64,000 nucleotides of DNA from Rhodospirillaceae bacterium (GCA_038127535.1 JAYPHU010000014.1:713-64712); one strand, 5' to 3'; positions 36,185 through 63,336 are shown, counted from the first letter of the stretch. A program made the numbers and translations. Notes: generated by a model not told the origin, from the letters alone.

Positions 36185-36208
36185 TCGACTGACACCAAGA
36201 CCGGACGC

Positions 36209-37858: not shown

Positions 37859-37957
37859 GACCTCTGCCCTCCCCAGGCTTAATTGCGGCTGTTTCGCCTA
37901 ATATGCCCGAGCATATCCGCTAGTTCCAGGCGTGAATTCCGCCAAATTCCGTCGGGG

Positions 37958-40182: not shown

Positions 40183-42312
40183 TTAGAACAGATTAAGCCA
40201 GATGATGGATTTCAGCTCCGGAAACCAAACACCCATCAGAGATTGAGGCCACGGAACGATCAACAGGACGTGGAACAAGAGGTAAGACACAATCCACATG
40301 GGTACGGCAATCGACAGGGTCATTTTCCAACTTTCGCCGCTGCCGAACCGCATATAGCCCACCAGGAAGACAAACATGGACGGCAGCAGGCCGATCACCC
40401 CGGCGACGGCGAAGAAGAACAGCAGCCAGCCGAAATACACGGCCGCCCGGCGGAGTATTTCCTGAACAGAGAGATCTCCGTAGTCAGCCTTAATGTCGAA
40501 GTGCACATCCTCGCCCTCGACCGCAAAGGCATCCACTTTGTTTTTCTCGCCTACGCCAGTGGCTGCAACCGCAGAAGCTTCGATCGGCTTCGGCACAACG
40601 AAGAACCGCAAGAACACAATCCCGCCGGCAAAAAGAATCCCCGCGATGCTCATCACCTGGGGCACCAAGCGCGCCGCCAGCTCCCAATCTGCGGAGACAT
40701 AAAAAATGACGGCAAACAGGGCGATCACCCCAAAGGTGAAGTATGTGTCCGGGTTCATCGCCTCCGGCCGGAAGCCCAGAGTCAGGCCTCTGGAGATGCC
40801 CTGTTTACGCCGCGCGATATAGCTGCGAATGATGGGGCTCAGCACGCCGTACAAGGTGATCGCGAAAACAATCATGACCCAGGGATGGAACTCACCTTCG
40901 CGGACAACCCAAAGCCACTCCCAGCCATAGCGCTCCACCGAGATGAACATGTAACGTTCGATCAGCCCACCAAGCACAAAGCCCAAGATCAGTGGCGGCC
41001 GCGGCCAATGCATCCGTTTCATGAGCCAGCCTACAAGACCAAACGCCAGCAGGGTAACAATATCACCCCAGGACTTGGCGCCTTGGAAGGCGCCGATATA
41101 GGTGATCGCCAAAACCACCGGCGCCAGGATACCGATCCGCACCAGGGCAATCTTGGCAAGCTGTCCGGCAAACAGGAAGCACGTGCCTGCCCCCAAAATA
41201 TTGGCGATCGCCACCGACCAGACCAGGGTGTAGGTGATATCGAGGCGTTTGTTGAGCATTTCCGGTCCCGGCACCAGCCCGTGGATGAGGAACGCGCCCA
41301 GGATCAGCGCCATGGAGGCAGAGCCCGGCACACCAAAGGCGATGGTCGGCAACAGCGCGCCGCCTTCCTTGGCGTTGTTGGAACTCTCAGACGCGATCAC
41401 GCCCCGTACATCGCCCTTGCCGAAAGTTTTACCTGAATCCTTGATCGTGCGGACGGCGTGACCATAGGCGATCCAGTCAATGACGGATGCACCGATCCCG
41501 GGCACGGCTCCCAGGCCCGCGCCGAGGGTGGAACAACGGAACATCAAGAATTTATTCCTGAATACGTCCTTTACGCCCTCCCACTGCGCCCAGCGGGAAC
41601 CCACATCGGAATTTCCGGCAATGGATTTTCGCGAAATGACCATGTCAGCGATTTCCGGCACGGCAAACAAACCAAGCGCGATCGGCACCACCGGAATGCC
41701 ATCCCAGAGATAGAGCGTATCGAAAGTCCAGCGGAAGGTGCCGGTCTGGGAATCCTCGCCGGTCATGGCCACCAACACGCCGATGCAGGCGGCAGCCAAG
41801 CCCTTTAGCGGCGTGCCGCCGCTGAGCACCGCCACCAGGGACAGACCGAAGATGCAGATGGCGAACAATTCGGGCGATGCAATATTCAGGATAATCGGCC
41901 GGATCACCGGCACGGCGAGGGCCAGCAGAAACGCACCATAGAGCCCGCCCAGTACGGAAGCCGTAAACGCTGCGCCGAAGGCCCGGCCGGCTTCGCCCTT
42001 TCGCGCCATGGGATATCCATCGAGGATCGTCGCGGCTGAGCCCACCGTCCCCGGCACGCCGAACAACACCGCCGGGATCGTATCGGAGGTCACAACCACC
42101 GCCTGTAGCCCCATGAGAAAGGCCAATGCGGTATAGGGGTCCATATTAAAGGTGAACGGCAACAGAAGTGACAGGCCGACAAGGCCGCCCAGGCCGGGGA
42201 TCACGCCCAGGATCAGCCCGAAGAACACTCCCAGCGCCAAAAAGGAGAGACGCAACGGATCGGCCAGATTTGCAGCCGCCGTGATGGCCATATCCAGCAT
42301 ACTTACTTCCAT
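40183..42312 (-). CDS. tctA: Tripartite tricarboxylate transporter TctA with a C-terminal TctB-like fusion
   Basis: IPGLGG, LFGVPGT, DGYPMARKG, ESSNNAKEGG, GVPGS, HGLVPGP, followed by about 200 aa of 4-TM TctB-like tail. Start is uncertain (42300-42339). Confidence 0.9.
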   Translation of the reverse strand: MEVSMLDMAITAAANLADPLRLSFLALGVFFGLILGVIPGLGGLVGLSLLLPFTFNMDPYTALAFLMGLQAVVVTSDTIPAVLFGVPGTVGSAATILDGYPMARKGEAGRAFGAAFTASVLGGLYGAFLLALAVPVIRPIILNIASPELFAICIFGLSLVAVLSGGTPLKGLAAACIGVLVAMTGEDSQTGTFRWTFDTLYLWDGIPVVPIALGLFAVPEIADMVISRKSIAGNSDVGSRWAQWEGVKDVFRNKFLMFRCSTLGAGLGAVPGIGASVIDWIAYGHAVRTIKDSGKTFGKGDVRGVIASESSNNAKEGGALLPTIAFGVPGSASMALILGAFLIHGLVPGPEMLNKRLDITYTLVWSVAIANILGAGTCFLFAGQLAKIALVRIGILAPVVLAITYIGAFQGAKSWGDIVTLLAFGLVGWLMKRMHWPRPPLILGFVLGGLIERYMFISVERYGWEWLWVVREGEFHPWVMIVFAITLYGVLSPIIRSYIARRKQGISRGLTLGFRPEAMNPDTYFTFGVIALFAVIFYVSADWELAARLVPQVMSIAGILFAGGIVFLRFFVVPKPIEASAVAATGVGEKNKVDAFAVEGEDVHFDIKADYGDLSVQEILRRAAVYFGWLLFFFAVAGVIGLLPSMFVFLVGYMRFGSGESWKMTLSIAVPMWIVSYLLFHVLLIVPWPQSLMGVWFPELKSIIWLNLF

Positions 42313-42609
42313 GCCCGGAAATTCTCCCTGTGTGGGCAATTCTCCTCGAAGAATTGCTGATGCCTACTTATTTATGAGCCAATGTGTAGCAGATTAATCT
42401 GCCCCAGTTCCATGAAAACTCTTCAATTTTTCGGGAAAATTGCTTAGAACACTTAGGAGTTTTGCCGCAGTCCTGATAGGATACCGGCGTTTTTAGCAAT
42501 ATGGCGGTATGCCGGAATGCAGGTTGTCGCCACAATTGCGGCACAATTTATCGGTTCAAATTTGTCGGAATGATCTCAATTTTCCCGGCAATGATCCAAA
42601 GGAGGTAAT

Positions 42610-43644
42610 ATGTACAAGTTTCTGAAATACTCTGCTGTGGCCGCAGTTGGCGCAGCTCTTCTGGCCGGCGCGCCTGCCAAGGCGCAAAGCGCCGCTGACT
42701 TCTTCAAGGGTAAGACCCTGACCATCGTATACGGCTTTGGTTCGGGCGGCACCTACGGCAGATTCTCTCTGCTGTTTGCGGAATATATGTCGAAGCACAT
42801 TCCGGGCAATCCGCAGGTGATCGCCCAATCCATGCCGGGTGCCGGTGGCCTGAAGGCCGCAAACTATGCCTACAACGTCATGCCCAAGGACGGCACTGGC
42901 CTCTACGTGCCGGTCGATACGCTGATCGTCTCTGAATTGCTTCGTCCGAAAGCGGTGAAATTCAAGTCCGATAAGTTCACCTGGCTCGGCAACGCGGTTC
43001 AGGCGAACGCCGTCATCGTGGTTCGGACGGATGCCGGCATCAACAAACTTGAAGACCTCAAAAGCAAGCAGGTCATCATCGCGTCCACCGGTAAAGGATC
43101 GCAGACCTTCCTGATGCCGGCTCTGATGAACGCCGTCTACGGCGCCAAGTTCAAGATCGTTTCCGGCTACAAGGGGTCCCGCAATCTGCAGCTGGCCATG
43201 GAACAGGGTGAGGCCCAAGGTTCTTCCCTGACCTGGCTGGCCTGGTCCACCGCCAAACCCCAGTGGTTCAAGCCGGGCGGATTTGCGAAAGCCCTCGTCC
43301 AAATCGGTTATGCCAAGGACAAAGCCCTGCCGAACGTGCCGCTGGCATCCGAGGTCGTTACTGATCCGGGTGACAAGCAGATCGTCAACTTCATGGCGTC
43401 CATGGGCCCGATTGGCCGTGGCCTCGCGGTCCCGCCGGGCGTCCCGGCCGACCGCGTTGCGGTGTTGCGGAAAGCCTTCTCCGACATGATTGCGGACCCG
43501 ACGTTTGGACCGGCAGCCAAAAAACGGAAGTTGGCGGTCAACGCCCTTTCCGGCGAAGAAGTCCAAAAAATTGTCAATGAATCGATGAAAGTCGATGAAG
43601 CTTTGTTGAAGCGGGCCCGCGCGGGCATCATGGGTGGCAAATAA
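42610..43644 (+). CDS. tctC: TTT substrate-binding protein (Bug/TctC family)
   Basis: Signal peptide, HIPGNP, MPGAGG, PKDG, GYKG, LPNVP, PPGVPADRV. Confidence 0.9.
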   Translation: MYKFLKYSAVAAVGAALLAGAPAKAQSAADFFKGKTLTIVYGFGSGGTYGRFSLLFAEYMSKHIPGNPQVIAQSMPGAGGLKAANYAYNVMPKDGTGLYVPVDTLIVSELLRPKAVKFKSDKFTWLGNAVQANAVIVVRTDAGINKLEDLKSKQVIIASTGKGSQTFLMPALMNAVYGAKFKIVSGYKGSRNLQLAMEQGEAQGSSLTWLAWSTAKPQWFKPGGFAKALVQIGYAKDKALPNVPLASEVVTDPGDKQIVNFMASMGPIGRGLAVPPGVPADRVAVLRKAFSDMIADPTFGPAAKKRKLAVNALSGEEVQKIVNESMKVDEALLKRARAGIMGGK

Positions 43645-43677
43645 GCCTGTACCGCTGACACAAGACTGAGTTAGAGA

Positions 43678-43713
43678 GCGGACGGGCGGCCATCGCCCGT
43701 CCGTTTCTCGTTT
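43678..43713 (+). terminator. Hairpin or terminator after tctC
   Basis: GCGGACGGGCG-N5-CGCCCGTCCGT followed by TTCTCGTTT. Confidence 0.65.
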
Positions 43714-43731
43714 CAGATCAGGGGAAGAACC

Positions 43732-44433
43732 ATGGCTGATAAAAGTGTGTTCGAGGATCACTGCTGGAAGGACGTTATCTCGGAAGAGGATTACGCGACC
43801 TATGCACCCTATCGGCGGGAGACCTATATCGGCGAACGGCCCGCGGTGTTGGCCATCGACCTCTACAATTTAGTATTCAAGGGCGGGCCCAAACCGCCAT
43901 CCGAAATTACCGTCAAATTTCCCAGCACCTGTGGCCAATACGCTTACGAGGCGGTTGAGCCGATCCAAAAATTATTGGCTGGCTGCCGGGCGGCAAACCT
44001 GCCGATCTTTTATATTACCGGCCGGTTTTCGGAGAACCGGGTGCGCTCCACTCGGCGCAACGTGGCGCCGCTCACAAAGGAAGATTATGAAATCCATGAG
44101 GCGTTCACCCCCGAACCTGATGACGTCGTCTTCCGCAAGGAGCGCGCCAGCGCTTTTTTCGGCACTCCTTTGATCGCCCATCTTACTCAGGGCGGCTTCG
44201 ACAGTCTGATCGTCTGCGGCGAAAGCACATCCGGCTGCGTACGCACCAGCGTTCTCGACGCCTATTCTTATGGTTTCCATATCTCTATCGTCGAGGAATG
44301 CGTGTTCGACCGGAGCGAACTGATCCATAAGGTCAACCTGTTCGACATGCACCACAAATATGCAGACGTGATGAAGCTGAACGAAGTGCTGGCTCATTTG
44401 GCCGGCCCGACCGAAACCAAAGGGGTCGCTTAG
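43732..44433 (+). CDS. Isochorismatase family cysteine hydrolase (NicF/RutB/N-carbamoylsarcosine amidase-like)
   Basis: AIDL (Asp), RKERASAFFGT (Lys), GESTSGCVRTSVLDA (Cys). Confidence 0.9.
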   Translation: MADKSVFEDHCWKDVISEEDYATYAPYRRETYIGERPAVLAIDLYNLVFKGGPKPPSEITVKFPSTCGQYAYEAVEPIQKLLAGCRAANLPIFYITGRFSENRVRSTRRNVAPLTKEDYEIHEAFTPEPDDVVFRKERASAFFGTPLIAHLTQGGFDSLIVCGESTSGCVRTSVLDAYSYGFHISIVEECVFDRSELIHKVNLFDMHHKYADVMKLNEVLAHLAGPTETKGVA

Positions 44434-46867: not shown

Positions 46868-47674
46868 CTAAATCTTATCTTCCCATTCCGCCAGGAACGG
46901 TTCCACCAGCGCGTTCCATTCGTCGGAATGGCGTCGGAAGGAATAGTGCCCGCCCTCCTCCACGAGGATCAGTTTGGAGCCTTCGATGGCAGCGTGTAGA
47001 TCTTCGGAGAAATAATAAGGCACCGTCGCATCATCCCGCGTCCCAATGATCAAGGACGGATTTTTAATCTTGGTGAGCTCATCCAGCCGGTCATGGCTCA
47101 TGGTCATGTCGAGACGCGCCGCCAGAATTTCCGGCTTAGCAATGGTATCCAGGGACCGTTTCTCCACTTCCATCACGCGATCCAGATTATAGCGAAACTG
47201 GTTGGCCCCATTGGTGAACAGCGAGCTGATCTTCACATAGGCTTCCTGTCCTTCGGCCAGCGCGATCTGCTTGCGCGCCGTCTGCACCCGCATTATGTAT
47301 TCATCTGCCTTGGTCCAGGTGTTGGAGAAAATGCAGCAGCGCAACCGGTCCGGATGATCGATGGCTAGATTCTGCAGGATGGCCCCGCCGGTCGACGTGC
47401 CGGCCACATGCGCCTTTTCGATCCCCAACGTGTCCATCAGGGCGATCACATCCTCGGCGATGTGCTTAGTGGAATATTCGCTTAGGGGTGGCCGGTCGCT
47501 TTCTCCGGCGCCCCGGTGATCCAGGGAAATACAGCGATAGCTCTTGGAAAACTCGGCGATCTGATAGCCCCAGGCAGTCAGCAGCCCGACGAGGCCGGGG
47601 ATGAAGATAAACGGCGGGCCATCTCCCTTCTCTTCCACGTTAAGGGTGATCCGTCCGACATCGATTCTCGCCAT
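46868..47674 (-). CDS. Alpha/beta hydrolase (RutD/enol-lactonase-like)
   Basis: FIPGLVG, DHRGAGES, GTSTGG nucleophile, DDATVP, GGHY. The likely start is ATG 47674. Confidence 0.88.
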   Translation of the reverse strand: MARIDVGRITLNVEEKGDGPPFIFIPGLVGLLTAWGYQIAEFSKSYRCISLDHRGAGESDRPPLSEYSTKHIAEDVIALMDTLGIEKAHVAGTSTGGAILQNLAIDHPDRLRCCIFSNTWTKADEYIMRVQTARKQIALAEGQEAYVKISSLFTNGANQFRYNLDRVMEVEKRSLDTIAKPEILAARLDMTMSHDRLDELTKIKNPSLIIGTRDDATVPYYFSEDLHAAIEGSKLILVEEGGHYSFRRHSDEWNALVEPFLAEWEDKI

Positions 47675-47774
47675 GATTTCCCCAATATTCTGCTCCGTTT
47701 GGTCGAGACCGCACTCTAGGCAACCCCGGCCAATGGGACAAACGGATTTCCCGCAGCATACCCTCGGATGTGCG

Positions 47775-47803
47775 TTGACACTCCCGGTTTTGAACAGCAC
47801 TTT
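47775..47803 (+). promoter_or_regulatory. Putative sigma70 promoter for the acyl-CoA operon
   Basis: TTGACA at 47775-47780, a 17-nt spacer, then CACTTT. Confidence 0.4.
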
Positions 47804-47826
47804 AGGCAAAATTCGAGGAGAGCAAG

Positions 47827-48969
47827 GTGGATTTCAGTTTTACGGAAGAGCAGGAAGTTTTGCGCGGCCAAGTCCGCAAACTGGTGCAAGATGTATGCCC
47901 GCCGGAGTATGTGGAGGAATGTGATTCCACTCCGCGTCCGCCGGTGGAAGCTTACAAGGCTATGGCGGAACAAGGATGGCTCAGCGTCCTGCTGCCGGAA
48001 GAACATGGCGGCGTCGGCGGCTCGCCGACGGACGTGGCCATCGTCCTGGAAGAAGTTGGCCGGCAGTATGAAGAACTGGCCATGTGGATGTTCCGCTCCA
48101 GCGTTTGGGGCGGCTATGCGGTCGCCACCCACGGGACGGATGAGATGAAGGCGGAGGTTCTGCCCCGGGTCGCTAGTGGCGATATCAGCATCTGCTTTGG
48201 CCTCACCGAACCAGACTCTGGCTCAGACGCGGCGGCGCTCAAAACTTTTGCCAAGCCGGACGGCGACGACTACATCATCAACGGCCAGAAGGTCTTCACC
48301 TCCGGCATGGACATCAGCGACTATTGTCTGCTGGTCACCCGCACAAGCCGCGGCGAGAAGCAGCAGGAAGGCATCACCCTGTTCCTGGTCGATACCAAAT
48401 TGCCGGGCATCGACATCAAGAAAATCGACACGCTCGGCCATCGGGGCATCGGCACCACCCAGGTGTTTTACGAAGATGTACGCGTCCCTAAGACGGCGAT
48501 CATGGGCGAGCTTAATCAGGGCTGGCGCTGCGCCGATCAGTATCTATGGTACGAGCGCCTGTGTCTCTCGGCGGCGCGGTATGGCGCCGCATCGGCCGCA
48601 TTCGAGTACGCGCTCAACTACGCCAAGGAGCGGGAACAATTCGGCCGGCCCATCGGCAAGTTCCAGGCAATCTCTCACAAGCTGGCAGATATGCGGGTGA
48701 TGCTCGAAGTGTCGCACTTGCTGGTCTACCAATTCGCCTGGAAGATGGAACGGGGCGAGGCCAGCCGCCACGACGCGGCAATCATCAAGCTCTATTCCGG
48801 CGAAGCCTATAAGTCGATCTCCGATTTGGGCTTGCAGATCTTTGGCGGCTACGGCTTCTGCATGGAATATCCAATGCAGCGGTTCTTCCGAGACTCCCGC
48901 CTGGCCGTGATCGGCGGCGGCACGTCAGAAATTCAGCGCAACATCATCGCGAAAAGTCTTGGCCTCTGA
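47827..48969 (+). CDS. Acyl-CoA dehydrogenase (CaiA-like or IVD/LCAD-type catalytic Glu position)
   Basis: GLTEPDSGSD, NGQKVFTSG, YERL, REQFGRPIGKFQ, GGYG, IGGGTSEIQRNII. Confidence 0.93.
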   Translation: MDFSFTEEQEVLRGQVRKLVQDVCPPEYVEECDSTPRPPVEAYKAMAEQGWLSVLLPEEHGGVGGSPTDVAIVLEEVGRQYEELAMWMFRSSVWGGYAVATHGTDEMKAEVLPRVASGDISICFGLTEPDSGSDAAALKTFAKPDGDDYIINGQKVFTSGMDISDYCLLVTRTSRGEKQQEGITLFLVDTKLPGIDIKKIDTLGHRGIGTTQVFYEDVRVPKTAIMGELNQGWRCADQYLWYERLCLSAARYGAASAAFEYALNYAKEREQFGRPIGKFQAISHKLADMRVMLEVSHLLVYQFAWKMERGEASRHDAAIIKLYSGEAYKSISDLGLQIFGGYGFCMEYPMQRFFRDSRLAVIGGGTSEIQRNIIAKSLGL

Positions 48970-50167
48970 TCAAAAAATTCACCGGCCCCTAGATGGCGTG
49001 CGGGTGTTGGAGCTCGGTCAGATCATCGCCGGCACCTACGGCGGGCAACTTCTCTCCGATCTTGGCGCTGAAGTCATTAAGATCGAAGCTCCGGTCGGCG
49101 ACCTGGGCCGGCTTCCGTCTGTCGCGCCCTATAAGCATCTGAGCGGTCTATTCCTCACCTATAACCGAAACAAGAAAAGCGTGGTGATCGATCTCAAGAC
49201 GGACCAGGGCCGAGAGGTGTTCTACGATTTCGTCAAAACGGCCGACGTGGTGGTGGACAACTTCCGCCCCGGCGTGTTGGAAAAGCTGAAAGTTGACTAT
49301 CCGACGCTGAAATCCATCAACCCGCGGATCATTCAGTGTTCGGTCACCGGCTTCGGCCTGGAAGGCGAGTATAAGGATCTGCCGGCCCTCGACATTATTA
49401 TTCAGTCCATCAGCGGCATGCTGGCGGTCACCGGCGAGAAAGACGGCCCGCCGGCCCGCGTCGGCATTCCGATCTCTGACTTGGGGGGCGGCTTGTTCTC
49501 CAGCCAAGGGATCCTGGCTTCACTCTATGAGCGGGAACGCACCGGCACCGGCCGGCGGCTCGAGGTCTCCATGTTCGATGCCATGCTCAGCCTCTTGAGC
49601 TATATGGGCACCCTCTGGCTGACCAATGGCGAACTGCCGGAGCCCATGGGTACGTCTCATGAGTATACGGTGCCCTGGCAGGCCTTCGAGACGAGAGAGG
49701 GCTATCTGGTGGTGGCCACCCGCCAGGACAAATTCTGGCAGATGTTCTGTGAAGCCGTTGAACGGCCCGATCTGGGCGCGGACGAGCGCTTCAGCACCAA
49801 TGACAGCCGGGTCGTGCACCGCGACGTCCTGGTCCCCATTCTGGAAGAACACTTGCGCACCCGCACCGCCCAGGAGTGGCTAAAGGTCATGCGGGAATTT
49901 GGTGTACCGGCAGCACCCGTGAACAATCTGGACGGGGTCTTCGCCGAACCGCCGGTGGCGGAGCGGGAGATGATCGTCGAATACGATCACCCCGAAGTGG
50001 GTAAGGTCCGCATGCCGGGCAACCCGATGAAGATGGAGGGTGTAACAGAAACCTTGTCGGAGCCCGCGCCCATGCTGGGCCAGCACACGGATGAGCTTTT
50101 GGAAGAATTGTTGAACAAAACGCCGGACGAGATCGCTGCCTTACGGGATGCCGGCGCGGTTAAATAA
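48959..50167 (+). CDS. CaiB/BaiF family III CoA-transferase
   Basis: DLGAEVIKIE, RNKKS, DNFRPG, TGFG, ALD (catalytic Asp), APMLGQHT. Confidence 0.93.
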   Translation: MASDQKIHRPLDGVRVLELGQIIAGTYGGQLLSDLGAEVIKIEAPVGDLGRLPSVAPYKHLSGLFLTYNRNKKSVVIDLKTDQGREVFYDFVKTADVVVDNFRPGVLEKLKVDYPTLKSINPRIIQCSVTGFGLEGEYKDLPALDIIIQSISGMLAVTGEKDGPPARVGIPISDLGGGLFSSQGILASLYERERTGTGRRLEVSMFDAMLSLLSYMGTLWLTNGELPEPMGTSHEYTVPWQAFETREGYLVVATRQDKFWQMFCEAVERPDLGADERFSTNDSRVVHRDVLVPILEEHLRTRTAQEWLKVMREFGVPAAPVNNLDGVFAEPPVAEREMIVEYDHPEVGKVRMPGNPMKMEGVTETLSEPAPMLGQHTDELLEELLNKTPDEIAALRDAGAVK

Positions 50168-50177
50168 GGGATAGATT

Positions 50178-50627
50178 ATGGTTGGATTGTATTGGGAAGA
50201 ATGGGAAATCGATCAGGAATTCGAATCACCGGCGCGAACCGTGACCGAAGCCGATGTGGTTCACTTCGCCGGTATTTCCGGCGACTATAATCCCCTCCAC
50301 GTGAACGAGGAATTCTGCAAGGAGACCATCTTCGGCACGCGCATCGCGCACGGGCCACTGATCTATTCCATCGCTGCCGGGTTGCTTTTCCAGCTTCATC
50401 TCTACGACGACACGCTGATCGCGTTTCTGGGCTTCGACAGTCTGAAGTTCACCAAGCCGGTGAAGATCGGCGACACCATCCACGCCCGAATCAAGGTGAC
50501 CGAAAAGCGGGAGACCTCGAAGCCGGACCGGGGCGTCATGAAACGGACCCTGGAAGTCGTCAACCATCACGGCGAGGTCGTACAGGAAGGCGTGCAGGCG
50601 TTTCTGTTGAAACGTAAACCGGCGTAG
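50178..50627 (+). CDS. MaoC family (R)-enoyl-CoA hydratase/dehydratase
   Basis: RTVTEADV, GDYNPLH hydratase motif, IAHG, PVKIGDTI. Confidence 0.92.
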   Translation: MVGLYWEEWEIDQEFESPARTVTEADVVHFAGISGDYNPLHVNEEFCKETIFGTRIAHGPLIYSIAAGLLFQLHLYDDTLIAFLGFDSLKFTKPVKIGDTIHARIKVTEKRETSKPDRGVMKRTLEVVNHHGEVVQEGVQAFLLKRKPA

Positions 50628-50638
50628 GGAGACGGACC

Positions 50639-51499
50639 ATGAGCTATCCCCTGATCACGCTTTACACGCCGGGCACCCGTCCTGAGCTGGCTCAGAAGGC
50701 TGAAAAGTACGACATCGATTCCATCATCATTGATCTCGAAGACACCGTACCGCCGGATATGAAGGCGGAGACACGGGGCATCATCGCCGAGTTGATCCCG
50801 ACCCTACCCAATAAGCCCCTGGTCCGAGTGAACAATGACCCGGACTTGCTGGAGGACGATCTTCGCGCAGTGATCACGCCAAACACGCTGGGCATCCTGT
50901 TCCCCAAGGCGGAAACGGTGGAGGACCTGAAAAGCGTCGACAAAGTCATGGAAGAAGCTGAAGCCGCCACCGGACTTGAGACCGGCTCGGTGCGGCTGTT
51001 GTTACAGATTGAATCCGCGCTCGGTGTGCTCAGATGCTTTGATCTCTGCATGGCGGCAGACCGGATCGACAGCGTCTCCTTCGGCAGCGCCGAGGATGGG
51101 GATCTGCAGCGGGATTTGGGCTGCGAGTTTTCTCTCGAAGGCACTGAGCTGATGTATGCGCGATCAAAGGTTTTGCTGGAAGCGCGTGCCGCGAAAATGC
51201 CCTACGTCCTGGACGGCGCCTTCAGCGATGTGAGCAATGTGGAGGCCTTCCGCACCGACAGTATCCTCTCCCGCCGGCTGGGCTATGACGGACGCACCTG
51301 TGTGCATCCGGCGCAGGTTGATGCGGCGCGGGAGATTTACTCTCTGTCGGAAGAACAGACCGCCTATTACCGGAAAGTGGTCGAGGAATTCGAAGCCGCG
51401 CTGAAGGCCGGCGCGGCCTCCATCAAGGTCGACGGCAAGATGGTGGACAATGCCATGTATGTGCAGGCAAAGTCCGTCCTGGACCGGTTCGGCGGTTAG
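50639..51499 (+). CDS. CitE/malyl-CoA lyase family acyl-CoA lyase
   Basis: IIDLEDTV, VRVN, PKAE, IESALG, GSAED, GRTCVHPAQV, DGKMVD. Confidence 0.92.
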   Translation: MSYPLITLYTPGTRPELAQKAEKYDIDSIIIDLEDTVPPDMKAETRGIIAELIPTLPNKPLVRVNNDPDLLEDDLRAVITPNTLGILFPKAETVEDLKSVDKVMEEAEAATGLETGSVRLLLQIESALGVLRCFDLCMAADRIDSVSFGSAEDGDLQRDLGCEFSLEGTELMYARSKVLLEARAAKMPYVLDGAFSDVSNVEAFRTDSILSRRLGYDGRTCVHPAQVDAAREIYSLSEEQTAYYRKVVEEFEAALKAGAASIKVDGKMVDNAMYVQAKSVLDRFGG

Positions 51500-52677
51500 G
51501 GAGAAATCTCCAGCCGCTTGTCGTGGCCGTCCGGCAGGCCCTTTTCCAGAACGTCTGAAATCCAATCGGCAATCCCCGGATAAATGTCTCCGGCCACTTC
51601 GCCCATGGGATGGAAGACATCCTGGTACATCCAGAGCTCTCTCGGACAGTTCAGCCGATCAAGCCAGGCATGGACGTCTTCCGGCGGCGTCAATTCGTCC
51701 ATTTCACCCGCGACCAGGAGGTACGGACATTCCAATTTTTCCCCGGATGCAAAAAAGTTTGCATCCATTTCATCGGCATACTTATCGAACGTATCCTCGT
51801 CGTAGATATTCGTCATATACATGTAGATGCGTTTGAAGTTGGGCTGGGCCTGATTAAAGATGACATCGGTCGGCCCCACATTGGCCATCTGCCCCACGGC
51901 GGCCTTTACCCGGGGGTCTGCCGCAGCGATCTCCACACTATAGCGGCTGCCCATGGAGGTGCCGAAGACGGCAATTTTATCCGCATCGACGTCGTCTCTC
52001 TCCACCAGCATGTCGAGAACGGCCGACCCCGCGCGGGCATAATTGCCGACAACCTGCCACACCTGATTGATGTTGCACTCCCCTTGCCCCGGTCCGTCCA
52101 TGACGCAGATATTCATGCCCCGGCGGGTAAACTCGTTGTTATACGGATTTGGGAAATCCTCTTTGATCGCGTCCATGCCCGGCTGATACAGGACCGTCGG
52201 TTTGGGCCCATCGCCCGGCGCTTTATGAAACAGGCAATAGATATTTTTACCGTCTTCAAAAGGCACAACGTGGCGGCTCACTTCTCCGTCCAGCAACTCG
52301 ATCAGCCGGTCATAATTCTCGACCACACTGGCATGATAGGACATCTTCTTGGCGTTGCCGTCCACGGGTATGAGGTGCTGAGCGCGGCCGTAATAGATAG
52401 CGGCCCGGTGAAAATGCTGTGCGGCGGTGACACGGTGCCCGGCCGCCAGGGCTTCTTCGGCCATTTCCTCCTGCCGGGCGGCGCCCGCCGCCCAAGCTCG
52501 CGGAAAGGCGCGCCGGCCGGTGACGTTGCGGAAAATCCGCTCCATATCACCGAATTTGAATCCCCGCTCCAACCGGATACCCATAATACCCGGATGCAGG
52601 ATGTCCTCGTTGTCTGTTAGCTGGATGAAATTATCAAAAATCCAGTTTTGACTCGCACGCGGTGCTTGCCGTCGCAT
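51496..52677 (-). CDS. Alpha/beta hydrolase, 2,6-dihydroxypseudooxynicotine hydrolase/FrsA-like
   Basis: PGMDAIKE, DGPGQGE, GTSMG, GEMDELTP, VFH. Confidence 0.78.
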   Translation of the reverse strand: MRRQAPRASQNWIFDNFIQLTDNEDILHPGIMGIRLERGFKFGDMERIFRNVTGRRAFPRAWAAGAARQEEMAEEALAAGHRVTAAQHFHRAAIYYGRAQHLIPVDGNAKKMSYHASVVENYDRLIELLDGEVSRHVVPFEDGKNIYCLFHKAPGDGPKPTVLYQPGMDAIKEDFPNPYNNEFTRRGMNICVMDGPGQGECNINQVWQVVGNYARAGSAVLDMLVERDDVDADKIAVFGTSMGSRYSVEIAAADPRVKAAVGQMANVGPTDVIFNQAQPNFKRIYMYMTNIYDEDTFDKYADEMDANFFASGEKLECPYLLVAGEMDELTPPEDVHAWLDRLNCPRELWMYQDVFHPMGEVAGDIYPGIADWISDVLEKGLPDGHDKRLEISP

Positions 52678-52701: not shown

Positions 52702-55191
52702 TTACGCCGTCGCTTCGTCCTTGCCGCTCATCTGATAGATCAGCGTCGCCCCCATCACGATCGCACCCACAATGTAAGTGTAGTAGTGAAGGTTAGCTTC
52801 GGTGCCGACGACCCAGGCGATGAACTCGCCGGTGGGCATCAACAGACACAGCGCACAGAACAGCCAGATAAACCGCTCATACGGCACATGCCGGCCGATG
52901 CCCCAACCGTCAAGGAATTTCGCCCAGCAGAACACACCGGCCGAAATGGCGATCACCGAAATAACGATGTCGAAGATCGGGCCTTCCAGCAATAGCGGCG
53001 TATAAACGAACAGGAACGGCGTGATCAGGATCATCGAGGCCTGTTTGAGCGCCTGGTTACCTGTTTTTACCGGATCGGACTGCGCGATGGAACTCGCCGC
53101 ATAAGCCGCCAGGGCCACCGGCGGGGTCACCGCGCTGACCACGGCCACCCAGTAGCTGATCATGTGGGCGGCGATCGGCGGTACACCCAGTTCAGACAGC
53201 GCGCCGACCGCGAAGATCGCCAAAATCACATAGCTGGCGACGATAGGCAGGCCCATACCGACGATGTAACCGGCGACGATTACCCAGAATATGGTCAACG
53301 GCAGCAGCCCAAAACTGGCGTCCACCAACAATTGAGACACCCGGCCCGGGAGATCGGACTGGGTCGCGGCGGAGAGCAGAATACCCAGCACGCCGGCGAT
53401 GCAACTAACCACCAGCGTGTTTCGCGCGCCCGCTTCGAGAGAGACCCAGATCGTGCGGACCAGCTCCTTGAACACGTCGCCCAAGGATTTGATCTCCAAA
53501 CCGGCATCATCATAACCGACGCCGGCGTTGGCGACTTCGCGGATTGCATGTTCGGGAGCATCGCTCCGGCCGAGATAGGCAATCTCGCCCACTTTCAGGA
53601 CGATGAAGGTGAACAACACCCAATAGCCAGCGTCGCCGATGCCGATTCCCACATCAGCGTAGACGAACCACATAAAGGGCGCACCGATTTTCTCACCGAA
53701 GATATAAACGAACGCTCCAACCAGAACACTAATCGTCAAATAAGATTTCCATGAGGTGCGCGACACACGTGTGGGGATCACGACCAACAAATCAGTCAGC
53801 TTCAGCATGATGATCAGAATGATGGTCTTGGCCGCCGCTAGGAACGCGGAGTCGCCGATTACCAGAAAGAAGATCATCGCCGGAATCGGCAGCAACAGGT
53901 GCAGCCGAGGCACAATACCGTCCCACGACGGCAGTTCAGAGGCCGGCACCCCATGCAGCTTGTCTCGCCGGGCCCGGAAATACACGATCAGGCCTACCGA
54001 CAGGTAATAAAGAAGCGCCGGAATGGCAGCGATCTTGACGATATCGAAGTAGCTGGTTTCAGTTAGTTCCGCTAGCAGGAACGCGCCGGCGCCCATGATC
54101 GGCGGCATATAGGCGCCGCCGGTCGACGCCGCAGCTTCAACGCCGCCTGCGAACTCGGGCCGGTAGCCGACTCGCTTCATCAGCGGAATGGTAAACGTGC
54201 CCGTGGTCATAACGTTGGCGACGCCGCTACCGGAGATCATCCCGAAGAAGCCGCTGGAGATCACCGCTGCTAGACCGGGGCCGCCAGTCTTTTGGCCGGT
54301 CAGCCGGTAGGTCGTGTTGATGATCAGCGCACCCAAACCGGTTTTTTCCAGGAAGGCGCCCAGGATCACGAAGATCACGATGAAGGTTGCGAACACTTCG
54401 ACGATCAGGCCCAGCATGCCCTCGGTGGACAGCATGAGGAATTCCAGCACCCGTGCGGTGCGGTTGCCCGGGTGCTCCAGAATGCCCGGCAGATTCTGGG
54501 CGATCGGTTCAAACGAATAGATAAAGAACAGGAAGCCCAGCAGCGGGATCAGCGGTCCGACGATACGCCGGGCGATCTCGAAGCTCACGGCCGCCATCAT
54601 GGTGCCGAAAATTACCAGCTCGGCCGGCACCCGGCCGCCCATGTTGGTCTGCAGTTCGACCAGGTTGATGCCCCACCAAGTGACCGACGCTATGGCCGCC
54701 GACAGATAGAGGACGTCCGAAATGACCAGTCCGTCGCCCCGGCTACCGCGCCGGGCCTCGAAATAATAGAGGGCCGCACCGACAACGCCGCCGGCGATAC
54801 CTATGGTCCAAATGGTGTCGGTGATGTAGCGCCGCCAGAAATATTCCTGGCCACTCGCGGCCCAATGGATCAAGACCGCAATGGAGCCGACCAGCATGAC
54901 CATGGAGATTAGGGAGAAAAACTCATCCAGCCAGACAAACCCTTCCTTTAGGGATTTCTGCCGGCTTTTGAAGAGCAGGAGCGACATGACGCTCACGCCC
55001 ATGAAGAACGTGCCCTTGAAAATCTCGGAAACGGGTGGGCCGAAAACGGCGATATGAAGGAAGAAATACGAATAAGCCACCGCCACCACGGAAAATAATA
55101 TTTTCGCAAGGCCTGAAAGCTGTCTGGGTTGCGTCATCTCCTCACTAATGAGGCCGATTTTCATCAAGACGCCGACGGTTCCGGTAGCCAT
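52702..55191 (-). CDS. TAXI-TRAP fused 4TM/12TM permease (unusually long)
   Basis: GPGLAAVISSGFFGMISGSGVANV, EAAASTGGAYMPPIMGAGAF, GMGLPIVASY, VTPPVALAAYAA. Confidence 0.92.
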   Translation of the reverse strand: MATGTVGVLMKIGLISEEMTQPRQLSGLAKILFSVVAVAYSYFFLHIAVFGPPVSEIFKGTFFMGVSVMSLLLFKSRQKSLKEGFVWLDEFFSLISMVMLVGSIAVLIHWAASGQEYFWRRYITDTIWTIGIAGGVVGAALYYFEARRGSRGDGLVISDVLYLSAAIASVTWWGINLVELQTNMGGRVPAELVIFGTMMAAVSFEIARRIVGPLIPLLGFLFFIYSFEPIAQNLPGILEHPGNRTARVLEFLMLSTEGMLGLIVEVFATFIVIFVILGAFLEKTGLGALIINTTYRLTGQKTGGPGLAAVISSGFFGMISGSGVANVMTTGTFTIPLMKRVGYRPEFAGGVEAAASTGGAYMPPIMGAGAFLLAELTETSYFDIVKIAAIPALLYYLSVGLIVYFRARRDKLHGVPASELPSWDGIVPRLHLLLPIPAMIFFLVIGDSAFLAAAKTIILIIMLKLTDLLVVIPTRVSRTSWKSYLTISVLVGAFVYIFGEKIGAPFMWFVYADVGIGIGDAGYWVLFTFIVLKVGEIAYLGRSDAPEHAIREVANAGVGYDDAGLEIKSLGDVFKELVRTIWVSLEAGARNTLVVSCIAGVLGILLSAATQSDLPGRVSQLLVDASFGLLPLTIFWVIVAGYIVGMGLPIVASYVILAIFAVGALSELGVPPIAAHMISYWVAVVSAVTPPVALAAYAASSIAQSDPVKTGNQALKQASMILITPFLFVYTPLLLEGPIFDIVISVIAISAGVFCWAKFLDGWGIGRHVPYERFIWLFCALCLLMPTGEFIAWVVGTEANLHYYTYIVGAIVMGATLIYQMSGKDEATA

Positions 55192-55321: not shown

Positions 55322-56311
55322 TTAGTACCCTTGAACTAGACTAGCCGGCATTTTGTAGCCGCGGCCCGACCAGTACTTGGCCGCTGCCGGGTGAATCGGA
55401 ATCTTCACCGTCGTCAGGTTGGAGAAGTCGCCGTTCAGCGTCTTCCAATAACCTGCCGTGGCAGATAGTTTCTTCAGATTTTCCGGCTTGGCGGCAACCG
55501 ACAGCATAGCTTCGATCGCAGCAGCGGAAACTGATTTGTGAGCCAGCCAGTACACGTCATAACCGATGGACTTGGCCGGTTCGGTCATGCCGCGCACGTC
55601 CTTCTGCACCGGAATGGTCAGCGGAGAATAGAACGGGTTGGCTTTGACGATGGCTGCTTGTTCGGCATCGGTCAGGCTGACGTAGCGCACCGGCTTGGTG
55701 ATCGACAGCTGAGTCACGGCCGGGATCAGGAACGGCGCGCCGGCGGAGCAATACACGTCGATCTGACGGTCGCCCAAGGCGCGTCCGGAGGCCGCGAAGC
55801 CAAGGTTACGGGCATCAATCTTGTCGAGGAGCCCAACGCCCTTGAAGATATTGACGCAGTTCACGTTGGAACCGGAACCCTTGTTCAGCAGGTTAACAAC
55901 CTTACCCTTCATGTCGGAGAAGGTTTTGATCGGGCTGTCAGCCAACACGACGATGAGCTGAGCCTGCTTACGCACGTTACCGATGATCCGGAAATCCTTG
56001 CTGGCGCCATCGCGCTTGAACAGACCAATGCCGTTCCAGGACTGATAGGCCTGGCCGACGTGGCCCCAAGCGGTGTGGAAATCGCCGAGTGAAACGCGGC
56101 GCACGTTATCCACTGAACCGTTGGACGGGGAATAGTTGAACTTGAATTTGCCGCTAAGTTCGCTGTTGAGTAATTGCGCACCAGCACTAACGGCAGGGTG
56201 CCAGCCGCCGCCAGCGGGGCCGCCACCAATTTTGTAAGATTCCATCGCCTGAGCAGACGTGGCCACAGCCAACGCAGCACTGGCAACCATCAAACCTTTG
56301 AAGATTTTCAT
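55322..56311 (-). CDS. TAXI family TRAP solute-binding subunit
   Basis: Signal peptide, GGGPAGGGW, SNGSVDNV, KGKVV, GSGS, IPIHPAAAKYW. Confidence 0.92.
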   Translation of the reverse strand: MKIFKGLMVASAALAVATSAQAMESYKIGGGPAGGGWHPAVSAGAQLLNSELSGKFKFNYSPSNGSVDNVRRVSLGDFHTAWGHVGQAYQSWNGIGLFKRDGASKDFRIIGNVRKQAQLIVVLADSPIKTFSDMKGKVVNLLNKGSGSNVNCVNIFKGVGLLDKIDARNLGFAASGRALGDRQIDVYCSAGAPFLIPAVTQLSITKPVRYVSLTDAEQAAIVKANPFYSPLTIPVQKDVRGMTEPAKSIGYDVYWLAHKSVSAAAIEAMLSVAAKPENLKKLSATAGYWKTLNGDFSNLTTVKIPIHPAAAKYWSGRGYKMPASLVQGY

Positions 56312-56445: not shown

Positions 56446-57477
56446 ATGACCGAAATTATCAGAGACGAGATCACCACGGCGGACGCCTGGATGGGCGCGG
56501 AAATCCAGCATCAGATGGACTGGACCTGGCATCTGACCGGCGGGGAGATCGAGGAAATCGACGCGGCGCTGCACACCGCCAAGGCCGCCGGCGCGGAGAT
56601 TCCCTTCTCCAAGGACTTGTTTCCTCTACCCACAGTGCAGAAGCGGCTGGAGAAGGTCGTCCGAGAGGTTTCTGACGGCCGGGGTTGCGTGATGGTGCGC
56701 GGCCTGTCCCGCGATCATTTTACCGATGAAGATTGCGCGCTTATCTATTGGGGCATCGGCGTTCACCTCGGCACGCCCGTTTCCCAAAACAAACGCGGCC
56801 ACTTGCTGGGCCATGTCACCGACGAGGGCAAGGATCTGAGCGACCCGGACGCCCGTGCCTATCAGACCCGAAATAAGCTGGACTTCCACTGTGACCAGTT
56901 ACCGGTGGATATCCTTGGCCTGATGTGTCTGCGCGGGGCCAAGATCGGTGGGGCCAGCTATCTGGTCAGCGCCCCCATGGTGCACAATGTTTTCCTCCGG
57001 GAACGACCCGACCTTTTGGAGTATCTCTATCAACCCCTGCACATTGATTGGCGGGGCGACCAGCCGCCGGGCGAACAGCCCTGGTACGACGTGCCCATGT
57101 TCTCGGCCAAGGACGGCCGTATCTCGGCGCGGGTCACCAGCCGGGCGTTTATCGAGTCCGTGGTCCGCTACGGCGACGAGCTGACGATCAGCGAGAAACA
57201 ACGCGAAGCCGTGGACGTAGTGCAAGATATCGCCAACCGGCCGGAGCTCCGGCTCTCCATGGAGTTTCAGGAAGGCGACTTCCAGTTCATCAGCAATCAC
57301 TCCATCATGCACGCCCGCGAAGCCTATGAGGACTATGACGACCCGGCTTTGAAACGGCATCTTTTGCGCATGTGGATCGGCCTGCCGGACGAGCTGCGCC
57401 GCCCTCTCTCACCGCTGCTGGATCATCGCTATGATTATGTAAAGATCGGCGGCATCCCCAAACACGCAAACGCCTGA
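56446..57477 (+). CDS. TauD/TfdA family Fe(II)/2-oxoglutarate dioxygenase
   Basis: GRGCVMVRGL, LGHV, FHCD (HxD), GGASYLVS, NHSIMHAR, RHLLRMW. Confidence 0.9.
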   Translation: MTEIIRDEITTADAWMGAEIQHQMDWTWHLTGGEIEEIDAALHTAKAAGAEIPFSKDLFPLPTVQKRLEKVVREVSDGRGCVMVRGLSRDHFTDEDCALIYWGIGVHLGTPVSQNKRGHLLGHVTDEGKDLSDPDARAYQTRNKLDFHCDQLPVDILGLMCLRGAKIGGASYLVSAPMVHNVFLRERPDLLEYLYQPLHIDWRGDQPPGEQPWYDVPMFSAKDGRISARVTSRAFIESVVRYGDELTISEKQREAVDVVQDIANRPELRLSMEFQEGDFQFISNHSIMHAREAYEDYDDPALKRHLLRMWIGLPDELRRPLSPLLDHRYDYVKIGGIPKHANA

Positions 57478-57484: not shown

Positions 57485-58591
57485 ATGTTCAAAATACAAA
57501 AGATCGATTCCTATGCTGTCAGTATGCCGCTGAAGTCACCGATCAAGATGGCGGGTATCGTTGTAGAGACGGCAGATAATCTGCTGGTACGCGCAACGGA
57601 CAGCGATGGCAATGTCGGCTGGGGCGAGGCATCGTCCGCACCCACAATGACCGGTGAAACCCCGGAAAGCATGTTGGCCGCAGCGCACTTTATCGCCCCC
57701 CGGATAGAAGGGCTGGAAATCGAAGCCTTGTCCCATATTCACCATCAGGTGGATGCGCCCATGTATGGAAATCACGGGGCCAAAGCGGCGATCGAAATCG
57801 CCCTGCTGGACATCGCTGGCAAGCGGTCAGGTAAGCCGATCTATGAATTACTGGGCGGCGCTCAGCGTGACGAGGCAAGAATATTGGCCATGATCGCCGG
57901 CGGTGACTTGGAGACCGAGAAAGCCAACGCTCGGAAACTGGCTGATGCCGGCTTTGACGCGTTCAAGGTGAAGATCGGCATTCTGGGTGCTGATCTGGAC
58001 CTAGAAAGATCGGCGGCGACAAGAGCTGTTCTTGGTGAAGACGTGCAGATATCCGCCGACGCCAATCAGGGCTATACCCGCGATGACGCTCTGGATTTTG
58101 CCAGAGGCGCTCGGCAGGCGGGGTTAAACTTTATGGAACAGTTGCTGCCGGGTTCGGATATCGAGGGGATGGCTGCCTGTGCCGAGGAAACCGACGTGCC
58201 GCTCGGCGCTGACGAGGGCATTCACAGCCTGAACGATCTGCGCGCCCACAAAGATGCGGGCGCCGCCAAAGGCGCAAGTCTGAAAGCCATTAAACTGGGC
58301 GGGCTGTTCCCGGTGATAGAGGCGGCCAACTGGATGAACGGCAATGGGATGCATATCAATCTGGCCGGAAAGGTCGCCGAATCGACCATCGCCAGCGCCG
58401 CCGTCGCGCATGTTGCTTTGGCTTTGCCGCAGCTGGACTGGGATACGTCTATTACCAATCAGTATCTGGCGGAAGACCTGGCCGATGATTCCTTGAAGAT
58501 CGAAGACGGTGTGGTTCGTCTGGATGATCGGCCCGGACTGGGATGGGAGCCGTCCGAAGAACGGCTCCAGCGATTCCAAATCCTGCAGTAG
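57485..58591 (+). CDS. Enolase superfamily, muconate-lactonizing/dipeptide-epimerase subgroup
   Basis: GWGE, FKVKIG (KxK), DANQ, EQ, DEG metal ligands, KAIKLGG. Confidence 0.9.
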   Translation: MFKIQKIDSYAVSMPLKSPIKMAGIVVETADNLLVRATDSDGNVGWGEASSAPTMTGETPESMLAAAHFIAPRIEGLEIEALSHIHHQVDAPMYGNHGAKAAIEIALLDIAGKRSGKPIYELLGGAQRDEARILAMIAGGDLETEKANARKLADAGFDAFKVKIGILGADLDLERSAATRAVLGEDVQISADANQGYTRDDALDFARGARQAGLNFMEQLLPGSDIEGMAACAEETDVPLGADEGIHSLNDLRAHKDAGAAKGASLKAIKLGGLFPVIEAANWMNGNGMHINLAGKVAESTIASAAVAHVALALPQLDWDTSITNQYLAEDLADDSLKIEDGVVRLDDRPGLGWEPSEERLQRFQILQ

Positions 58592-59689: not shown

Positions 59690-59802
59690 TGAGTTCCCCT
59701 GGGTTACGCACATTGAGATTTGCCCAACTGTACTGAATTGGGTTTGCCCGGAAAAGACCGAGGGGATAAATAGGCAGACAAGAAAACAGGGAAGAGAATT
59801 AG

Positions 59803-61093: not shown

Positions 61094-61211
61094 AAATTAC
61101 CTCCCAAAGGTTGAATACCGTACATACGGCTTGGTGCGAATTGGTGGCGTATTATCAGCCACACTTATAATCATATCAATAGAACAAATAAGGCGGATAG
61201 ATGATCTCGTC

Positions 61212-63188: not shown

Positions 63189-63336
63189 GCGCCTACCTGT
63201 GAGAATCGCCGCCTTTTTGAACTGGCTCAAAATTGGTGAGGTCAGCCTAGTATGAATCTCAATTCGAGAAAAGCGTGTCCTAATAGGGGAATGTCGAAAT
63301 ACTTGGAAAGCGCTCGGGAACACAATAAGCTCTCGG

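Follow-up and report, generated by a model that had tools for sequence, protein, structure and literature searches.

Four genes in a 64,000-nucleotide stretch of Rhodospirillaceae bacterium DNA (GCA_038127535.1, JAYPHU010000014.1:713-64712; hereafter the window) form a real operon. Judged by its sequence, this operon has the same enzyme-family architecture as the itaconate/methylsuccinate cluster of Pseudomonas aeruginosa, yet is non-orthologous to it. The four tightly packed open reading frames (ORFs) lie on the plus strand at positions 47827-51499 and encode an acyl-CoA dehydrogenase (ACAD), a family III CoA-transferase (CoAT), a single-domain MaoC hydratase and a stand-alone CitE-like lyase. 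We consider it fairly probable that they constitute one operon for the CoA-dependent, thiolase-free breakdown of an imported dicarboxylic acid. The general mechanism, comprising CoA activation, dehydrogenation, hydration and CitE-type cleavage, is predicted with good confidence from the enzyme families. As to the acid itself, a 2-substituted succinate such as methylsuccinate is the simplest choice and is tentatively put forward as the prime candidate.

Operon structure

The ACAD gene (47827-48969, 380 aa) starts with a GTG codon, which is preceded by a GAGGAGAG ribosome-binding site. Its end overlaps by 11 nt the gene of the family III (CaiB/BaiF) CoAT (48959-50167, 402 aa). A gap of 10 nt separates the CoAT gene from that of the single hot-dog MaoC (R)-specific enoyl-CoA hydratase (50178-50627, 149 aa), and 11 nt further on begins the gene of the stand-alone CitE-like (HpcH/HpaI fold) acyl-CoA lyase (50639-51499, 286 aa). 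A consensus scan of positions 47300-51900 revealed no sigma-70-like promoter on either strand. The single terminator-like site in this region was on the minus strand within the ACAD gene, and shuffled sequence yielded more such sites. The tight junctions and the lack of internal promoter or terminator signals were consistent with one transcription unit. For the CoAT, some gene callers choose an alternative GTG start 13 codons downstream. The long start was called in three related loci, and the first residues align there and in two further marine relatives.

The catalytic residues of all four proteins were invariant in alignments of 12-15 orthologues, made up of the window proteins and those of 11-14 other loci. 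An earlier reading of the sequence alone (the original prediction) had described four packed genes with intact catalytic motifs here, and the coordinates, Pfam families and invariant residues all agreed with that description. The PDB relatives of the four proteins were generic, and none of the four reached an NCBIfam equivalog cut-off.

Features of the four enzymes

All three domains of the ACAD superfamily were recognized by Pfam (Acyl-CoA_dh_N, E 6e-24; Acyl-CoA_dh_M, E 4e-24; Acyl-CoA_dh_1, E 5e-46), and the glutamate base was present as Glu243. This residue lies on helix G within the motif 'WYERL' ('LWYERLCLSAAR') and was invariant in 15 orthologues. In an alignment with human medium-chain acyl-CoA dehydrogenase (MCAD), Glu243 fell at the position of Thr255 and Gly364 at that of Glu376. 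This mapping depends on the MCAD sequence used, in which the landmark residues Glu99, Thr255 and Glu376 occupied the positions given in the literature. We take the Thr255 position to be the catalytic-base position of the isovaleryl-CoA (IVD) and long-chain (LCAD) acyl-CoA dehydrogenases. The family-invariant Arg90 aligned with MCAD Glu99, on the inferred floor of the acyl pocket. This placement suggests that Arg90 might anchor a free carboxylate, in which case the acyl group would bear a carboxylate.

The best NCBIfam scores of the ACAD were 288 bits for acryloyl-CoA reductase (AcrC), 261 for PRK12341 and 237 for the non-decarboxylating glutaryl-CoA dehydrogenase, followed by 229 for 3-sulfinopropanoyl-CoA desulfinase and 223 for CaiA. 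The cut-offs of these models are 470-640 bits. The label 'CaiA-like' in the original prediction was therefore not borne out, as CaiA stood behind four other models. The CaiA and CaiB models themselves placed neither protein in those families (PRK03354, 223 bits against 540; PRK03525, 130 bits against 413). The PDB matches of the ACAD were generic ACADs only, with E about 1e-66. A desulfinase-type enzyme was ruled out because the catalytic Glu is present. The genome encodes the alpha and beta subunits of electron transfer flavoprotein (ETF), the expected electron acceptor of the ACAD.

The CoAT matched Pfam CoA_transf_3 over its full length (profile positions 1-366, E 1e-126). Its Asp174 was invariant and aligned with the equivalent Asp of PA0882 from P. 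aeruginosa, as expected for a family III CoA-transferase. The nearest NCBIfam models all stand for enzymes with C2-C5 dicarboxylates as substrates, namely succinate-glutarate (304 bits), YfdE oxalate (302 bits) and succinyl-CoA:mesaconate (301 bits), with cut-offs of 522-750 bits. SUGCT and YfdE were the PDB relatives, with E about 1e-80.

The hydratase, which matched Pfam MaoC_dehydratas with E 1e-31, was the best-conserved member of the module, with 78-85% identity across phyla. Its motif 'SGDYNPLH', including Asp36 and His41, was invariant in 12 orthologues and identified it as an (R)-specific MaoC enoyl-CoA hydratase. It scored 92 bits on the PaaZ C-terminal domain and 55 bits on RipB_Ich (NF038241), against a cut-off of 340 for the latter.

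The lyase contained a full-length HpcH_HpaI domain (E 9e-42). The metal- and substrate-binding residues were conserved, and 'DLED', Arg63, Glu125 and 'DGD' aligned with PA0883 and 1sgj, as in CitE-like lyases. The NCBIfam scores were 172 bits on TIGR01588 citE (cut-off 443), 117 on RipC_Ccl (NF038242; cut-off 375) and 60 on malyl-CoA lyase (cut-off 500). We rejected the beta subunit of canonical citrate lyase (CitDEF) on account of the TIGR01588 score, and also because CitF, the citrate lyase alpha subunit, was found nowhere in the 98.7%-complete source genome.

Proposed reaction sequence

In the first step, the family III transferase would place CoA from a donor, probably succinyl-CoA or acetyl-CoA, on one carboxyl of the acid. 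The ACAD, with Glu243 as the base and Arg90 probably holding the free carboxylate, would then introduce the 2,3-double bond and pass the electrons to ETF. The single-domain MaoC hydratase would hydrate the product to a 3-hydroxyacyl-CoA. Finally, the Mg-dependent CitE-like lyase would cleave this intermediate into acetyl-CoA and an oxo-acid. With methylsuccinate as the substrate, the route would pass through mesaconyl-C4-CoA and citramalyl-CoA to give pyruvate and acetyl-CoA. The order of the reactions, the donor of CoA, the function of Arg90 and the nature of the acid are all inferred. Thiolase-free cleavage of a saturated di- or tricarboxylate had already been suggested in the original prediction, and this logic agrees with the enzyme families, the intact active sites and the preservation of all four genes as a module.

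Conservation of the module

In a scan of species-representative genomes, the four genes were likewise clustered in other Rhodospirillaceae, in a Hyphomicrobiales metagenome-assembled genome (MAG) and in a Korobacteraceae (Acidobacteriota) MAG. More than 120 metagenomic ACAD clusters showed identities of at least 68%; all were generically named, and many came from Burkholderiales MAGs. The contexts of nine of these clusters were read, and all loci were then re-searched together. The result was 15 independent module loci in three phyla, from marine Rhodospirillaceae, Burkholderiales, Hyphomicrobiales and Acidobacteriota. The CoAT gene adjoined the ACAD gene in every one of them, while the lyase was present in 14 and the hydratase in 12.

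All four genes were adjacent in 12 of the 15 loci, in two different orders. The marine loci (clade A: the window, L002, L003, L024, L028 and L029) had the order ACAD-CoAT-MaoC-CitE. The soil and groundwater loci (clade B: L005, L006, L007, L018, L019, L020, L021 (identical with L022), L023 and L030) had the order CitE-ACAD-CoAT-MaoC. Identities between the window and clade B were 66-71% for the ACAD, 66-70% for the CoAT, 80-85% for the hydratase and 45-50% for the lyase. The co-location of the four genes is far beyond chance. Since the same genes were kept across three phyla despite the change in order, they provide strong evidence for a functional unit.

Among 401 evenly sampled Pseudomonadota genomes, an orthologue of the ACAD (E 1e-120 or better) occurred only in the window's own genome. 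When annotated plasmids were searched by tblastn with the hydratase, the ACAD and a racemase-like protein described below, only paralogues of 53% identity or below were found, in unrelated contexts. This plasmid search yielded no cultured carrier and no informative annotation.

Individual features of three loci were also noted. In L001, the ACAD gene (2596-3890) contained a duplicated or inserted stretch of about 100 nt near its 3' end, and in L018 the CoAT gene (10164-11346) was broken into four frame-shifted pieces. As these modules were otherwise intact, the defects look like assembly errors rather than real pseudogenes. In L024 (4404-8955), ACAD-CoAT-CitE without MaoC directly followed the genes of hydantoinase A, hydantoinase B (ATP-dependent ring-opening amidase family) and an SDR protein. 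This context hints at a cyclic amide or imide as the upstream source of the acid in some lineages.

Accessory genes and transporters

In four of the six clade A loci, the operon was followed by a conserved block of genes encoding an alpha/beta hydrolase, a TAXI-TRAP transporter, a TauD dioxygenase and an enolase-superfamily protein of the MLE subgroup. The hydrolase gene (51496-52677, minus strand; FrsA/DUF1100 type, Pfam FrsA-like) is convergent with the lyase gene, and the ends of the two overlap by 4 nt. The best PDB match of the protein was 2,6-dihydroxypseudooxynicotine (DHPON) hydrolase, 2jbw (E 2e-21), followed by fungal Ayg1. We take both to be C-C hydrolases that release a carboxylic acid. 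With such enzymes as the best structural relatives, a simple esterase was considered the less likely product of the FrsA-like gene. In L002, L003 and L028 the gene has remained a neighbour of the operon, with 84-95% identity, and the hydrolase is probably an accessory enzyme acting upstream of the module.

The genome holds three such hydrolases. One was found outside the window in a second small cluster (contig C4, 40086-44676; partly locus L025), which had no ACAD or MaoC gene. This cluster encoded a DHPON-hydrolase-like alpha/beta hydrolase 40% identical to that at 51496-52677, another alpha/beta hydrolase, a family III CoA-transferase 45% identical to P. aeruginosa Ict, and a CitE-like lyase with 218 bits on RipC_Ccl (cut-off 375). 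Its direct substrate may be a diacid that is hydroxylated or unsaturated. The repeated pairing of the hydrolase with CoA-transferase and CitE-like genes suggests that it may supply the acid.

The next two genes, both on the minus strand, encode a fused TRAP permease of the TAXI type (52702-55191, 829 aa; TIGR02123, 496 bits) and a TAXI solute receptor (55322-56311, 329 aa; TIGR02122, 157 bits), each with a score above the cut-off. They were kept beside the operon in L002, L003 and L028. The receptor had no close ligand-defined relative (best E 6e-19). The transporter probably imports the anionic substrate or a precursor. Carboxylate importers accompanied the module everywhere, in the form of a fused TRAP permease and TAXI receptor in the marine loci, TctC or TctBAC in the soil loci and MFS in the acidobacterial locus.

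Divergent from the transporter genes lies the plus-strand gene of the TauD-family dioxygenase (56446-57477), with that of the enolase-superfamily enzyme, MLE subgroup (57485-58591), on the same strand. Both were assigned by Pfam and NCBIfam and were kept at 61-66% identity in L003 and L028. The best PDB match of the enolase-family protein was 2p88 (E 5e-49; deposited as 'mandelate racemase/muconate lactonizing enzyme family protein'), presumably the N-succinyl amino acid racemase of Bacillus cereus; muconate cycloisomerases came next. The two proteins are possible accessory enzymes, and the enolase-family protein may be a racemase or cycloisomerase acting on the acid.

Another type of partner was found in clade B. 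A hydantoin-racemase-like gene adjoined the module in seven of the nine loci, namely L020 (7191-7988), L006, L007, L018, L021, L023 and L030. The 265-aa protein belongs to the Asp/Glu/hydantoin racemase superfamily and has two cysteines ('GCF' and 'AAC') at racemase-typical positions. The other copies were 77-85% identical to that in L020. No NCBIfam model matched, the plasmid collection contained no close homologue, and hydantoin and allantoin racemases in the PDB were distantly related (E 3e-11). Another remote PDB relative, the fungal peptide epimerase OpaE, was uninformative. The gene was almost confined to the neighbourhood of the CitE-ACAD-CoAT-MaoC module, and we regard its product as a candidate for an unannotated diacid racemase family.

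The original prediction had also suggested that the module might consume ring-cleavage products of neighbouring modules. The upstream genes, which encode an alpha/beta hydrolase, a Gfo/Idh/MocA oxidoreductase, a PF13454 flavoprotein and an isochorismatase-family hydrolase, were shared with no relatives other than the nearest ones, L001 and L002. The Mo-hydroxylase/UbiD operon (31442-39013) was not found within the 8-10 kb flanks of the more distant marine loci. Conservation thus gave no support to a link with the ring-cleavage or Mo-hydroxylase modules: in marine relatives, only the downstream hydrolase, TAXI-TRAP, TauD and enolase-family genes travel with the operon.

Other features of the window were observed in passing. 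A 718-aa ORF (40183-42339, minus strand) fuses a TctA domain (E 2e-125) to a C-terminal TctB-like domain; a membrane part made of one polypeptide is unusual for a tripartite tricarboxylate transporter. A 401-aa ORF (42556-43761, minus strand) had no Pfam or NCBIfam match, and a 344-aa ORF overlaps it on the other strand. It is uncertain which of the two strands is coding, as identity to L002 was only 69% for the 401-aa ORF but 87-96% for its neighbours. The minus strand at 60080-63848 encodes another TAXI receptor (337 aa) and another fused TRAP permease (878 aa), about 4 kb from the first pair and adjoining an Amidohydro_2 gene (58595-59713).

Substrate and alternative explanations

The racemase-like and enolase-family partners come from superfamilies that abstract a proton alpha to a carboxylate, which favours a chiral acid. 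A chiral acid, together with the fitting chemistry, in turn favours a 2-substituted succinate. Glutarate, 3-methylglutarate and tricarballylate are achiral, and their standing is lowered for this reason. The invariant core of the module is the ACAD-CoAT pair, implying that the main substrate is a saturated acid rather than itaconate. If methylsuccinate is the substrate, the operon would be a non-orthologous counterpart of the methylsuccinate route of Pseudomonas and Cupriavidus.

Several observations weigh against this assignment. The proteins are only 29-34% identical to the characterised methylsuccinate and itaconate enzymes, and the hydratase is unrelated in sequence to Ich; with such low identities, the shared chemistry does not fix the substrate. 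No curated equivalog cut-off was attained by any enzyme of the operon. Arg90 at the pocket floor of MCAD (Glu99), a placement that depends on the MCAD sequence used, could also suit a longer dicarboxylyl chain. MaoC was missing beside the module in three of the 15 loci, and the lyase in one. The enolase-family gene could encode a cycloisomerase instead of a racemase, and no racemase-like gene was found in the genome from which the window comes.

A further proposal, which we hold to be doubtful, is that the acid is new to this CoA-ester route and that three unrelated proton-abstracting enzymes were recruited to make both enantiomers usable. Such an acid may be tricarballylate, glutarate (through 3-hydroxyglutaryl-CoA to malonate semialdehyde) or a 2-substituted succinate of larger size that the neighbouring C-C hydrolase sets free. 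The three recruited enzymes may be MmgE/PrpD in pseudomonads, the hydantoin-racemase-like protein in soil bacteria and the enolase-superfamily protein in marine Rhodospirillaceae.

A C5 or 3-substituted C5 diacid is an unlikely substrate, though the foremost of the alternatives to the 2-substituted succinate. Glutarate or 3-methylglutarate would be converted to its CoA ester and then, by a non-decarboxylating oxidation, to glutaconyl-CoA or 3-methylglutaconyl-CoA. Hydration to 3-hydroxyglutaryl-CoA or 3-hydroxy-3-methylglutaryl-CoA (HMG-CoA) and cleavage would then give acetyl-CoA and malonate semialdehyde or acetoacetate. The top CoAT model, succinate-glutarate CoA-transferase (304 bits), the presence of SUGCT among the PDB relatives and the 237 bits of the ACAD on the non-decarboxylating glutaryl-CoA dehydrogenase model all point this way. 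However, the scores are far under the cut-offs, and unrelated ACAD families score at least as well. The ACAD also has the helix-G base, which is typical of enzymes accepting 3-branched acyl groups, as known from isovaleryl-CoA dehydrogenase. A beta-hydroxyacid dehydrogenase gene directly follows MaoC in one soil locus. A CitE-family lyase of Mycobacterium tuberculosis is reported to cleave HMG-CoA (PMC6689899). In the literature we found no natural 3-hydroxyglutaryl-CoA lyase route, and the sole mention concerned synthetic pathway design. Moreover, achiral substrates would leave the recurrent racemase-like partner without a role.

Somewhat less probable still is tricarballylate. Activation of a terminal carboxyl would lead through aconityl-CoA and citryl-CoA to acetyl-CoA and oxaloacetate, a CoA-dependent alternative to the TcuAB route. 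The best curated model of the lyase was citE, a citryl lyase (172 bits against 117 for RipC_Ccl), but CitE-like lyases generally score best on this model. Tricarballylyl-CoA is 3-branched and carboxylate-rich, which would suit the helix-G base and the pocket arginine. Genes of tripartite tricarboxylate transporters are in or beside the module in many loci, with a full TctBAC set in L030. However, TctC-type receptors occurred in several copies in the soil-clade loci examined, which makes a TctC neighbour a weak clue to the substrate. The acid is also achiral, leaving the racemase-like partner unexplained, and no CoA-dependent tricarballylate route was described in the literature searched.

An equally improbable alternative is that the four genes do not serve one linear pathway. 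The ACAD-CoAT pair would then be the real unit and would deliver an enoyl-CoA to the products of genes at other sites. MaoC and CitE would serve a second substrate, for example an unsaturated or a hydroxy acid. Consistent with this, L021/L022 carry only the racemase-like, ACAD and CoAT genes, MaoC is lacking from L020 and L024, and the lyase is about 48% identical between the clades compared with 66-85% for the other three proteins. The adjacency of the four genes in most loci in either order argues against such a division, as does the translationally tight spacing in the window (-11, +10 and +11 nt) without internal promoter or terminator signals.

It is very improbable that the operon represents the known itaconate pathway (Ict/Ich/Ccl) with an accessory dehydrogenase, made up of true orthologues of PA0878-PA0883: the same four families and a TRAP transporter do occur in P. 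aeruginosa, but the identities are only 29%, 34% and 29% with no match for the hydratase, the RipC_Ccl (117 against 375) and RipB_Ich (55 against 340) scores are low, the MmgE/PrpD and VOC genes are absent, the invariant core is the ACAD-CoAT pair (15 of 15 loci) instead of the hydratase-lyase pair, and a separate CoA-transferase 45% identical to Ict lies beside another CitE-like gene on contig C4.

Implications

Branched and polycarboxylic acids of small size are widespread, both as intermediates and as sources of carbon in the environment. To our knowledge, no dehydrogenase-extended pathway of this type has been characterised other than the pseudomonadal methylsuccinate route, described in 2025. 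The operon would define a second, non-orthologous family of the same, already known logic, with an ACAD-CoAT core and its own accessory enzymes. The family is abundant in metagenomes and rare in reference genomes. Assignment of the substrate would annotate hundreds of genes labelled only 'acyl-CoA dehydrogenase' or 'CoA transferase', and would give a testable function to the unannotated racemase-like family. It could also add a thiolase-free cleavage route to the carbon turnover of marine and soil bacteria.

Comparison with known systems

A literature search for an ACAD/CaiB/MaoC/CitE cluster yielded nothing relevant, and we therefore compared the operon with systems of related chemistry. The RipA-RipB-RipC system of Yersinia and Salmonella likewise combines a MaoC-type hydratase of one domain with a CitE-like lyase to act on a C5-dicarboxylyl-CoA. 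The window proteins differ from RipB and RipC, as their RipB_Ich and RipC_Ccl scores are far below the cut-offs. In addition, RipA is a family I-type transferase, and the Rip itaconate system is not known to include an ACAD.

Dehydrogenation, hydration and CitE-type cleavage also occur in the Mcd-Mch-Mcl1 segment of the ethylmalonyl-CoA pathway and in the Mct-Meh-Mcl segment of the Chloroflexus 3-hydroxypropionate bi-cycle. Their substrates are methylsuccinyl-, mesaconyl-, and methylmalyl- or citramalyl-CoA, and Mct is a family III transferase. The ACAD of the window, with 380 aa, lacks the N-terminal extension of about 170 aa found in Mcd and differs from that family in this respect. It aligned to residues 168-549 of the 551-aa 6es9 (E 2e-48), behind about 40 generic ACADs; this entry, the one solved Mcd-type match, was deposited only as 'acyl-CoA dehydrogenase' and is presumably Mcd. 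Mch is a double MaoC protein of about 350 aa, and the window lyase scored only 60 bits on the malyl-CoA lyase model against a cut-off of 500. Both cycles are assimilatory, unlike an import-linked catabolic operon.

In M. tuberculosis, Rv2498c (CitE) is reported to be a bifunctional citramalyl-CoA/HMG-CoA lyase with adjoining MaoC and FadE genes (PMC6689899). The system resembles the window operon in that thiolytic cleavage can be replaced by a CitE-fold lyase together with an ACAD and a MaoC hydratase (PMC6689899). The likeness of the lyases themselves is distant: 1u5h, 1z6k and 6aq4, deposited as 'citE' or 'citrate lyase beta subunit', matched the window lyase with E about 1e-15. We take these three entries to be the M. 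tuberculosis CitE protein. The Rv2498c pathway starts from leucine via a carboxylase, and no step catalysed by a family III transferase is known in it.

The closest parallel is the P. aeruginosa cluster, and the itaconate/methylsuccinate precedent named in the original prediction held. A P. aeruginosa replicon among the collected plasmids carried the PA0878-PA0886 cluster, and the Ccl sequence was taken from a PDB alignment. The cluster has the same four families (PA0878 Ich, PA0879 ACAD, PA0882 Ict and PA0883 Ccl), the same inferred reaction order and a carboxylate importer nearby, which is of the TRAP type there. PA0879 and its homologue in Cupriavidus necator were shown experimentally to be (RS)-methylsuccinyl-C4-CoA dehydrogenases (Gonner et al. 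2025, PMC12290011). PA0879 oxidises methylsuccinyl-C4-CoA to mesaconyl-C4-CoA and thereby extends the Ict/Ich/Ccl itaconate pathway to methylsuccinate, and an MmgE/PrpD protein is the methylsuccinate isomerase of that pathway (PMC12290011).

PA0879 also has the catalytic Glu on helix G (Glu244), with Pro at the position of MCAD Glu376. The original prediction had rightly seen a Glu in the YERL position of the window ACAD, but as a difference from the methylsuccinate enzyme this feature did not hold. The common helix-G Glu is a subfamily trait, and the ACAD is less identical to PA0879 (29%) than to many generic ACADs. The CoAT is 34% identical to PA0882 Ict and the lyase 29% to PA0883 Ccl. The hydratase is indeed the single short MaoC domain that had been predicted, a 149-aa single hot-dog protein in place of the 275-aa two-domain Ich (PA0878), and BLASTP found no match between the two at E 1e-3. 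The invariant Arg90 is replaced by His in PA0879. The MmgE/PrpD isomerase and VOC genes of P. aeruginosa have no counterparts here, with no MmgE/PrpD match among the genes scanned at 39187-63848 or among the neighbours scanned or listed in related loci. Instead, the accessory isomerase candidates come from other superfamilies (hydantoin-racemase-like and enolase). Orthology was thus indicated neither between the lyase and Ccl/RipC, nor between the hydratase and Ich, nor between the ACAD and PA0879. The same architecture combined with low identities and an unmatched hydratase shows that the window proteins are not orthologues of PA0878-PA0883.

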